DNA of 63,568 bases from an uncultured Fibrobacteraceae bacterium (GCA_964399195.1 CAYNPY010000009.1:1758-65325), one strand, 5' to 3'. Counted from the stretch's first letter, positions 8,523-12,212 are shown. Made by a program: numbers and translations. The notes: generated from the letters alone by a model not told the origin.

Positions 8523-9573
8523 CGCCGTGACCGGAAAGGCGGCCGAGCCGTCGCTCGCCGCGCTGGAGACCCTCATCGCCGGGCGCGCGCTGGACCGCGA
8601 GGCGGCGCGCGAACTGATGGCCGCGGTCATGGCGGGCGCCGTGCCGCCCGCGCGGCTCGGCGGCCTGTTGACGGCCCTGCGCGCGCGGGGCGAAACCGTC
8701 GAGGAGATCACCGGCTTCGCCGAGGCCATGCGAGAGGGCGCGGTGCCCGTGCGCTGCCGCCGCGAAGGCTTGGTCGACACCTGCGGCACCGGCGCCGACG
8801 ACAGCGGCACCTTCAACATCTCCACCGCGACGGCGCTGGTCGCCGCCGGCATGGGCATCCCGGTGGCGAAGCACGGCAACCGCGCCGTGTCCTCGCGCAG
8901 CGGGAGCGCCGACGTCCTGGAGGCCCTGGGCGTGAACGTGGACCTGGACGCCGCGCGCGCGGGCGCGTTGCTGGACGAATTGGGGATCGCCTTCCTGTTC
9001 GCGCCCCGGCTGCATCCGGCGATGCGCCACGCCGGCCCCGTGCGCCGCGAGCTGGGCGTGCGCACGGTGTTCAACGTGCTGGGCCCGCTGACCAATCCCG
9101 CCGGCGCCGAGCTGCAGTTGCTGGGCGTCTTCGACGCGGCCCTGTGCGAGCCGCTGGCCCGCGTGCTGGGCCGGCTCGGCTCGCGGCGCGCATTCGTCGT
9201 GCACGGCGCCGGCGGCCTGGACGAGGTCTCGCCGCTGGGTCCGACGCGGGTGGCCGAGCTGCGACGCGGCGCCGTGCGCACGTTCACGTTCGATCCCGCC
9301 GAGGCCGGCGTGGAGCGTTGCGCGCCGGCCGACCTGGCGGGCGGATCGCCCGCCGACAACGCCGCGATCATCGCCGGCATCCTCGAGGGACGCGAGGGTC
9401 CGCCGGCCGACGCCGTGGCGCTCAACGCCGGCTTCGTGGCCGTGCTGGCCGGGCGCGCGCCGGATTTCCGCGCCGGCGTCGCGCTGGCCCGCGCGACGCT
9501 CCGTTCGGGCGCGGCGCTGCGCCTGCTGCGGCGCCTGGCGACCGCGACCGGCGCTTCGGGGGAAGCGGCATGA
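8515..9573 (+). CDS. trpD: Anthranilate phosphoribosyltransferase
   Basis: DTCGTG...[41 protein letters not shown]. Confidence 0.96.
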
Positions 9574-12212
9574 GCTTCCTGGAGGACATCCGGCCGCTGA
9601 AGCTGGCCGAGGCGGCCGCCCTGCGCGAGAGCCACGCGGCGCGGCCGCCGTGCCGCCCCGCGGACCGGCCCGTGCTCGACTTCGCCGCCGCCCTGCGCGA
9701 CGGCCGGCGGCTCATCGCCGAGATCAAGGGCCGCGCGCCGAGCCATCCCGGCTACGCTCTGAAGGCGCCGGTGGACCGGCTGGCCCGCGCCTACCGGCGC
9801 GGCGGCGCGGCCGCCATTTCGCTGGTCGTCGACCGCGGGCACTTCGGCACCGCGCTGGCGGACCTGCCGGCCGCGCGATCGGCCGGGCTGCCGGTCATCG
9901 CCAAGGACTTCGTGCTGGACCCCGTCCAGATCGACGCCGCCTGGGCCGCGGGCGCCGATGCCGTGCTGCTGATCGCGCGCTGGCTGGACGCGGCGACGCT
10001 GGCCGCGCTGCAGGCCCACGCGCGCGGCCTGGGCCTGCAGGCGCTGGTGGAATGCCACGACGAGCGGGACGTCGACGCGGCCCTGGACGCCGGCGCCGCG
10101 CTGGTGGGCGTCAACAACCGCGACCTGGCGGCGCTGCGCACGGACCTGGGGCGCGGCGAGCGCCTGCTGCCGCTGCTGCCGCCGGACGTCGTGCGCGTGG
10201 CTGAGAGCGGCCTCTACACGCCGGCCGACCTCGAGCGCCTGCAGCGCGCCGGCGCCGACGCGTTCCTGGTGGGCCATGCGCTGCTGCAGAGCAGGGATCC
10301 CGGCGACACCGTCGCCGTGCTGGCCGGACGCCGGCCGCCGGGCGCGCCGCTGGTGAAGATCTGCGGCTTGACCGGCGGCGACGACGCGCGCGCGGCGGCT
10401 GCCGCCGGCGCCGACGTGCTGGGCCTGGTCTTCGCGCCGAGTCCCCGGTGCGTCGACCTGGCGGACGCGGCCGCGATCCGCGCCGCCGTGCCCGACGCGC
10501 GGTTGGCCGGCGTCTTCCGCGACCAGGACCCGGATTTCGTGCTGGCGGCCGTGGCCGCCGCCGACCTCGACCTGGTGCAGCTGCACGGGGCCGAATCGCC
10601 GGCGTACGCGGCCGCGATCACCGCCGCCACGGGCGCTCCGATCATCCGCGCGCTGGAGCCCGGGCAGGTCGCCGGCGGCGCTGCCGCCGCCTGCGCGGAG
10701 GCCGCCTACCTGCTGGTGGACCCGCCCAAGTCCGCCGACCCGGCGGCCGCCCGCGGCGCAGTCCTGGCCGCGGCGCGGCAGCTGGCGCAGGAAGGCGCCC
10801 GCGTGCTGGTGGCAGGCGGGCTGTCGCCGGCGGACGTGGCGGCGGTCGTCGAAGACGCGCGGCCGTACGGCTTGGACGCCTGCCGCGGCGTCGAGAGCAG
10901 CCCCGGGCGCAAGGACGCCCGGAAGCTGACGGAATTCCTGCTCCGGGCGGGGCGCCGGCCCGGTGAAGCGACGGCCGGCGGCGGGCGCCGCGGACGTTTC
11001 GGGCCCTACGGCGGGCAGTACGTGCCCGAGACGCTGATGCCTTGCCTGGCGGAGCTGGAGACCGCGTGGCTGGCCGCGCGCCGCGACGCCGGCTTCCAGG
11101 CCGAGCTGGCCGAGCTGCTGGCCGACTACAGCGGCCGCCCCACGCCGCTGTACCGCGCCCGGCGGCTGGAGGCCGCCTGGGGCGGCGGCGCGCGCGTGTG
11201 GCTCAAGCGCGAGGACCTCAACCACACCGGCGCCCACAAGATCAACAATTGCCTGGGCCAGGTGTTGCTGGCGCGGCGCATGGGCAAGACGCGCCTGATC
11301 GCCGAGACCGGCGCCGGCCAGCACGGCGTGGCCACCGCGACGGTGGCGGCGCTGACGGGCCTGTCCTGCACCGTCTACATGGGCCAGGTGGACATGGCGC
11401 GCCAGGCGCCCAACGTCGGCCGCATGCGGCTGCTGGGAGCCGAGGTGGTGCCGGTCGTGTCGGGCGCGCGCACGCTGAAGGACGCCACCAGCGAGGCGAT
11501 TCGCGACTGGGTGACCAACGTCGCGGACAGCCACTACATCATCGGCTCGACGGTGGGCCCCCACCCCTACCCCTCGCTGGTGCGCGACTTCCAGGCGGTG
11601 ATCGGCGCCGAGGCGCGCCGGCAGGTGCTGGCCAAGGAGGGCCGCCTGCCGGACGCCGCGATCGCCTGCGTAGGCGGCGGCAGCAACGCGGCGGGGCTGT
11701 TCGCCGGCTTCCTGGACGACCCGGTCGCGCTGTTCGGCGTCGAGGCGGGCGGCGGCGAGCAGGGCCACTCGGCGGCCCTGGCCCTGGGCAGCCCCGGCGT
11801 GCTGCACGGCTCGCTCAGCTACCTGCTGCAGGACGAGAACGGCCAGGTGCTGCCGGCCCACTCGCTGGCGGCGGGACTCGACTATCCGGGCGTGGGCCCG
11901 GAGCACAGTTGGTGGAAGGACACCGGCCGGGTGACCTACGAGCGCGTGGGCGACGACGAGGCGCTGGCCGCCTTCGGCGAGTTGTGCCGGCTGGAGGGCA
12001 TCATCCCGGCGCTCGAGTCGAGCCACGCGCTTGCCTTCTGCCGGCGCCTGCTGGGCGACGCGGATGCGCTCGCGAATCTGCGGTCCGCGCGACCGGCCGG
12101 CGACGGTGACGCACCGCTGGTCGTGGTCGTCAACCTGTCCGGCCGCGGCGACAAGGACATGCAGGGCGCGGGCCCCGATGGTGAAGGAGGCGCGCATGGG
12201 ACGGCTCGCTGA
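9570..12212 (+). CDS. trpCFB: Trifunctional IGP synthase / PRA isomerase / tryptophan synthase beta (TrpC-TrpF-TrpB fusion, about 880 aa)
   Basis: One uninterrupted frame. IGPS motifs [26 protein letters not shown]; PRAI motifs VKICG (about 10353), [19 protein letters not shown]; TrpB motifs [15 protein letters not shown] (about 10992), [46 protein letters not shown] overlap with trpD. Confidence 0.93.

Follow-up and report, generated by a model that had tools for sequence, protein, structure and literature searches.

A TrpC-TrpF-TrpB fusion gene in a putatively attenuated trp operon and its likely stepwise origin

Multi-enzyme fusions in the tryptophan pathway are a classic model for the origin of gene fusions and for the kinetic benefit they may bring. 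A stretch of DNA of 63,568 nucleotides from an organism recorded as an uncultured Fibrobacteraceae bacterium (GCA_964399195.1 CAYNPY010000009.1:1758-65325; the whole stretch is referred to here as the window) raises the question anew: does its trpCFB gene specify indole-3-glycerol phosphate synthase (IGPS, TrpC), phosphoribosylanthranilate isomerase (PRAI, TrpF) and tryptophan synthase beta (TrpB) as a single polypeptide, and how did such a gene come about? We favor, with a probability of roughly 85%, a genuine trifunctional TrpC-TrpF-TrpB polypeptide, encoded in a putatively attenuator-controlled operon, that originated in two steps through a frame-joining insertion. The value of the locus is that it captures stepwise gene fusion together with an identified mutation: all three stages (separate trpC, trpF and trpB; trpCF with trpB; trpCFB) are found among close relatives, and the apparent causal mutation can be read to the single base. 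Otherwise, this is an ordinary biosynthetic gene and not a new system.

One reading frame for three enzymes

The fusion gene is one stop-free frame of 880 codons (9570–12212), which lies on the plus strand with the rest of its operon and predicts a protein of 880 residues and 90.8 kDa with all three domains in the order C-F-B. The IGPS domain (9666–10313, residues 33–248) matches Pfam PF00218 with E=1.9e-57 and 194.8 bits, against a gathering cutoff of 27, and aligns to PDB 1pii and 3qja. The PRAI domain (10353–10940, residues 262–457) matches PF00697 with E=2e-31 and 109.7 bits, against a cutoff of 22.7. The TrpB domain (10992–12164, residues 475–865) scores 555.9 bits on the trpB equivalog model TIGR00263, the cutoff of which is 392.45; within it, Pfam recognizes the pyridoxal phosphate (PLP)-enzyme fold PALP at residues 522–827 (E=5e-39), and the domain matches TrpB chains in the PDB with E values down to 7e-159. 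Models of the TrpB2 type score below their own cutoffs on the fusion protein, and the domain is of the TrpB1 type. These results bear out an earlier note on this DNA, made from the sequence alone, which had placed the three enzymes in one frame with short linkers and intact catalytic motifs. The linkers it quoted are indeed present as a 10-residue C-F connector (10323–10352, residues 252–261) and a 15-residue F-B linker (10947–10991, residues 460–474).

The catalytic residues of all three enzymes are in place. Measured against a reference IGPS set consisting of the equivalents of E51, K53, K110, E159, N180 and S211, the fusion protein has E51, K53, K112, E161, N182 and S213, none of which varies across 70 aligned triple fusions. 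The same alignment shows invariance of the catalytic PRAI cysteine, C265 of the KICG motif, and, in TrpB, of the PLP lysine K557 (within HTGAHKINN), E579, the phosphate loop GGGSN at 702–706 and S857. The PRAI sequence LLVDP, which includes the catalytic Asp motif LLVD, occupies residues 381–385.

An AlphaFold2 model of the fusion protein, generated with a 70-sequence alignment, has a mean predicted local distance difference test score (pLDDT) of 91 and a predicted template modeling score (pTM) of 0.62. The only stretches of low confidence are residues 466–474 in the F-B linker (pLDDT below 50) and the C-terminal tail, residues 870–880; the C-F connector is modeled confidently, with a pLDDT of about 89–94. 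Residues 38–455 align to residues 39–444 of PDB 1pii, and no solved structure containing C-F-B is found among the PDB matches. Because the F-B linker has low pLDDT and its sequence varies among relatives that are 84–86% identical, and because the C-F connector is confident, the model suggests an ordered, E. coli-like CF unit that is tethered flexibly to TrpB.

The GC content of the region is 75–79%, at which stops are rare, open frames arise by chance and an error of one nucleotide would be invisible. High GC could thus mask a frameshift, and we therefore examined independent DNA. Twenty metagenome runs (bioreactor, wetland, activated sludge and sediment samples; at least 13 studies) contain 78–96% of the 31-mers sampled from the gene. 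Four of these runs, each from a different study, contain a Logan contig of about 2.81 kb that spans positions 9400–11231, both junctions included, without a mismatch or gap; exact contigs over 10249–10401 and 10913–11146 come from a fifth run (X28). Neither junction contains a stop or frameshift in these five independent runs and, because the junction contigs are exact, the fusion is real DNA and not an assembly error. No second copy of trpB, trpC or trpF is present in the organism's own assembly, which spans 3.84 Mb and is 95% complete; no other locus there matches any of the three domains, and the fusion is apparently the organism's only source of the three activities.

Origin of the two junctions

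To place the gene among its relatives, we searched 208 species-representative genomes of the same phylum, scoring as fused any stop-free match to residues 1–880. The phylum is probably Krumholzibacteriota, as indicated by the nearest named genome record (a Candidatus Krumholzibacteriota metagenome-assembled genome) and by a tree of TrpB domains. Only three of the 208 genomes carry the fusion, all of them from one genus: that of the window and two others (G003 and G005), in which the protein is 84–86% identical to that of the window and free of stops. Five congeners (G001, G002, G004, G006 and G007) instead have a trpCF fusion and a separate trpB in another frame, with 73–80% identity to the window in the CF part (where measured) and 82–85% in TrpB. 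Elsewhere in the family, some genera have trpCF and trpB (G011, G014 and L011) and others have three separate genes. In the TrpB tree, six fused rows form one clade (SH-aLRT, the Shimodaira–Hasegawa-like approximate likelihood ratio test, 96), whose sister group is the five split congeners and which sits amid split members of the family (95). Because the fused rows form one clade within a split family clade, the tree points to one fusion event, recent and limited to a sub-clade of the genus.

Examination of the junctions points to the mutation that was probably responsible. Where the genes are split, TrpCF ends ...AGR* and TrpB begins MT(T/R/S)P...GRFGPYGG, and the two genes overlap as CGA TGA / ATG ACG ("GATGA"). 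In the fused relatives P0002 and P0003, the junctions read AGR-MTMH and AGH-MTMH, respectively, and the old initiator Met is kept in frame in both. The junction of G003 reads AGR-LTNH (CGC CTG ACG); the TGA can still be recognized there, out of frame. The window's junction reads AGR-RPGE, from which the old TrpB start Met is absent. Alignment of the junction DNA fits the insertion of one base directly 5′ of the trpB ATG.

These patterns support a two-step origin. In the first and older step, trpC and trpF would have been joined in the manner of E. coli, with an ordered connector; this CF fusion is common to the whole genus and to some other genera of the family, and its connector is near-identical in P0002 and P0003. 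As trpC and trpF are unfused in many members of the family, the CF fusion here probably arose independently of the E. coli type. In the second step, which is recent and confined to a sub-clade of one genus, a one-base (+1) insertion in the GATGA stop/start overlap, just before the trpB ATG, would have brought trpB into the trpCF frame and placed the TGA out of frame. The F-B linker would then derive from that overlap and from the former N-terminal tail of TrpB, 11–13 residues long, inside which the old initiator Met still lies in some relatives. With fused and split orthologues at 82–85% identity, the genus offers a natural test bed that could show whether tethering TrpB affects flux, stoichiometry or stability.

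Two observations on the phylum stand apart from this history. In L094 (G028:C28) and G046, both of the same class (family f5), trpCF and trpB share one frame without being fused, parted by a single stop and a short spacer (...FAALRK*SKPSGN...MRQDGRFG). In addition, 71 of the 208 genomes (about 34%), including 37 of the 125 of high quality, have no strong TrpB match, which suggests that tryptophan auxotrophy is frequent in the phylum.

Distribution of the C-F-B order and known counterparts

The earlier note considered the attachment of TrpB to a TrpCF fusion unusual and named a common architecture as what would count against it. Locally the claim stands, as the three fused genomes among 208 show; globally it fails, because a domain-architecture search reveals that C-F-B is common. 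About 100 of the best 120 matches in a collection of 5.8 billion proteins carry all three Pfam domains, and domain-wise BLAST finds the order C, F, B in 96 of 131 retrieved proteins, which are 786–976 residues long and stand for at least 96 protein clusters at 90% identity. Pfam confirmed the order for P0005, P0018, P0028, P0086 and P0110, and the source names include Acidobacteria, Chloroflexi and Candidatus Limnocylindrales. On the TrpB tree, the other triple fusions are spread over several distinct clades, with unfused TrpB in between; explaining the pattern takes a minimum of 13 state changes, on a tree with weak deep forks and biased sampling. Because the other fusions occupy separate TrpB clades, the triple fusion has arisen repeatedly, with the lineage of the window as one more independent origin.

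Two other ways of counting were set aside. Clustering at 50% identity leaves about five full-length triple-fusion representatives, as the conservation of TrpB collapses the clusters. A tblastn scan of genome contigs gave 80 collinear C-F-B loci, but by open reading frame (ORF) analysis all of those outside the window's own genus are adjacent separate genes, and collinearity in tblastn alone would therefore overstate the frequency of fusion. The protein library also contains larger fusions by Pfam: P0152 (1220 residues) is TrpD-C-F-B, P0143 (1502 residues) is TrpA-F-B-D-C and P0146 (2214 residues) has all seven domains as E-G-A-F-B-D-C. The last two, which are the longest and mark the extreme of this multi-domain trend, are probably eukaryotic.

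No curated NCBIfam model exists for the C-F-B triple fusion, and our literature search revealed no account of a TrpCFB fusion protein from bacteria; in the papers found, 'trpCFB' denotes gene clusters. Comparison with models for two-domain fusions shows which features are shared. Like the E. coli-type TrpC-TrpF (PDB 1PII and 7ETX; NF006945/PRK09427), the window protein has C followed by F with a short ordered connector, but it differs in carrying a C-terminal TrpB; it scores 257.3 bits against a cutoff of 380, so that it is not an equivalog of this family, although it would be expected to work like TrpCF. The TrpF-TrpB model (NF010376/PRK13803) is the best-scoring of the NCBIfam models, matching residues 261–866 with 643.6 bits against a cutoff of 819. 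As in that family, TrpB has PRAI attached at its N-terminus; in the window protein, however, IGPS stands in front and the F-B join is recent and lineage-specific. The actinobacterial TrpC-TrpB type (NF010375/PRK13802; 592 bits against a cutoff of 1386) likewise has IGPS and TrpB in one chain, but lacks the PRAI that lies between them here. TrpC-TrpB proteins of 677–753 residues are present among the matches.

The closest counterparts in architecture are uncurated triple fusions from metagenomes, which have the same domain order and a similar size. One of them, P0028, also shares the operon context, trpE-G-D-CFB-A with a 3-deoxy-D-arabino-heptulosonate 7-phosphate (DAHP) synthase. Their domains are nevertheless only 38–50% (C), 27–40% (F) and 56–63% (B) identical to those of the window, compared with 82–85% for the separate TrpB of congeners. 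The multifunctional tryptophan enzymes of eukaryotes, such as those of Euglena and the fungal TrpA-TrpB protein TRP5, resemble the window protein in combining several late-pathway activities per chain and in tolerating an N-terminal extension on TrpB, but they have other domain sets and orders and are products of unrelated fusion events. PDB 7a20 is such a fused A-B chain, and a Euglena tryptophan polypeptide with five catalytic domains is cited in PMC2395257.

Function of the fused chain and its operon

If all three domains act within one chain, we infer that the 91-kDa trifunctional protein would dimerize through TrpB and bind two TrpA subunits, forming A2(CFB)2 with a fixed 1:1:1 stoichiometry. 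An assembly of this kind with TrpA bound, which would unite the last four activities, is plausible because the fusion is intact and trpA follows it with a 17-nucleotide overlap. The TrpB1-type sequence of the beta domain is a further, indirect pointer to an alpha2-beta2 complex.

Other explanations of the locus must be weighed against this one. An open frame produced by an assembly or sequencing artefact, in which a one-nucleotide indel error at the F-B junction merges two separate genes, would escape notice at about 78% GC, where stops are rare in every frame, and the sister species do truly differ by a one-nucleotide frame offset at this junction. However, the sequences from the five independent runs, which come from different studies, agree exactly and without gaps over both junctions, and G003, G005 and P0002–P0004 are fused as well, with different linker nucleotides. 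We thus reject an artefact as vanishingly improbable. It is also extremely unlikely that one or more domains are decaying, with fusion a step toward pseudogenization. Pathway loss does occur in the phylum, as the genomes without a strong TrpB match attest, but here the catalytic residues are all intact, the TrpB domain retains 82–85% identity to unfused orthologues, the whole operon and its putative attenuator are preserved and trpCFB is the only copy in the genome. A further alternative is that the enzymes act as separate proteins, produced by internal initiation or by cleavage in the F-B linker. The predicted disorder of this linker, the in-frame retention of the old trpB Met in P0002 and P0003 and the in-frame GTG codons at V250 and V262 are all compatible with it. 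The window's own F-B linker, however, lacks any in-frame ATG, GTG or TTG (the earlier note had seen no Met at either junction); the two GTG codons are at the C-F junction. The first candidates downstream, V485 and M490, sit in the conserved TrpB core, and initiation there would delete the invariant RFGxxGG motif. No candidate start, including these two, V250 and V262, is preceded by a Shine-Dalgarno sequence, and the window, G003 and G005 have lost the old start codon, which suggests that it is no longer needed. Separate proteins are therefore quite improbable.

The fusion might, alternatively, be an adaptive metabolon in which tethering puts the TrpF and TrpC active sites beside the TrpA-TrpB complex, such that the labile 1-(o-carboxyphenylamino)-1-deoxyribulose 5-phosphate and indole-3-glycerol phosphate (IGP) are channeled. 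The C-F-B order recurs across numerous lineages (a minimum of 13 state changes on the TrpB tree), which is in keeping with this, as is the coupling of trpA to the fusion gene. Against channeling, the linker is recent, sequence-variable among close relatives and modeled with low confidence in a chain with a pTM of just 0.62, and split congeners manage with the same enzymes; moreover, we know of no demonstration of channeling between IGPS and PRAI in E. coli TrpCF. We consider this explanation unlikely. The broader proposal, that recurrent C-F-B reflects selection for a defined A2(CFB)2 metabolon in which tethered IGPS hands IGP to TrpA, is similarly doubtful; if it were true, the genus would represent a first, still-floppy stage of metabolon evolution and its fused and split sisters a natural experiment on the benefit. 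Given that translational coupling preceded the fusion, that the linker is young, variable in sequence and disordered, and that sister species manage unfused, the fusion is probably nearly neutral or mildly beneficial and not a purpose-built channeling device. The reading of a trifunctional protein of two-step origin has evidence to contend with in turn. RNA runs yield few, shallow exact fragments, which are insufficient for a transcript across the junctions; the pTM says little about quaternary structure; and the direction of change (fusion and not fission) is argued from parsimony and from the uniformly split outgroups, in a TrpB tree with several weakly supported inner forks.

The gene lies in a cluster ordered trpL-trpE-trpG-trpD-trpCFB-trpA-aroG (DAHP synthase). 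A strong sigma-70-like promoter, TTGACA-17-TATGAT (6075–6103), matches consensus at 11 of 12 positions, where 0.1 sites are expected in shuffles of this region of about 75% GC. It is followed by an ORF for a trpL-like leader peptide of 44 residues (6161–6295), which has GAGG 6 nucleotides upstream and contains WRWWHW, four Trp in six codons, and then by a terminator hairpin, CCCGTCATC/GATGACGGG, with a T-rich tail (6326–6358), about 50 nucleotides before trpE. Six relatives of the same genus and family conserve the Trp-rich leader, and the hairpin and T-run are conserved in seven of seven genomes; leader ORF and terminator are kept together in all seven, and the antiterminator pairing was inspected by eye only. 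The region looks like a classical ribosome-mediated trp attenuator, and it has no Rfam match (5000–15000, E≤0.1), which means that it does not belong to a curated family.

Downstream of the leader lie trpE, for anthranilate synthase component I (6401–7930; Chorismate_bind 7e-95, with Anth_synt_I_N), trpG, for a glutamine amidotransferase (7932–8522; GATase 6e-55), and trpD, for anthranilate phosphoribosyltransferase (8515–9573), the stop of which overlaps the trpCFB ATG as ATGA. On the other side, trpA (12196–13026; Trp_syntA 3.9e-76) starts within the last 17 nucleotides of trpCFB and, by virtue of this overlapping start, is predicted to be translationally coupled to it. The cluster closes with a type I-beta DAHP synthase gene (13035–14084), the product of which has an N-terminal FXD domain, a ferredoxin-like regulatory domain; the first committed step of aromatic biosynthesis thus shares a transcription unit with the trp genes. 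At the P0028 locus, the same DAHP synthase gene stands upstream of trpE. Beyond the cluster, and unrelated to it, a convergent gene on the minus strand (14388–16679) encodes a protein of 763 residues in which a STAS domain is N-terminal and an HD domain (HD_5, HD-GYP-like) C-terminal.

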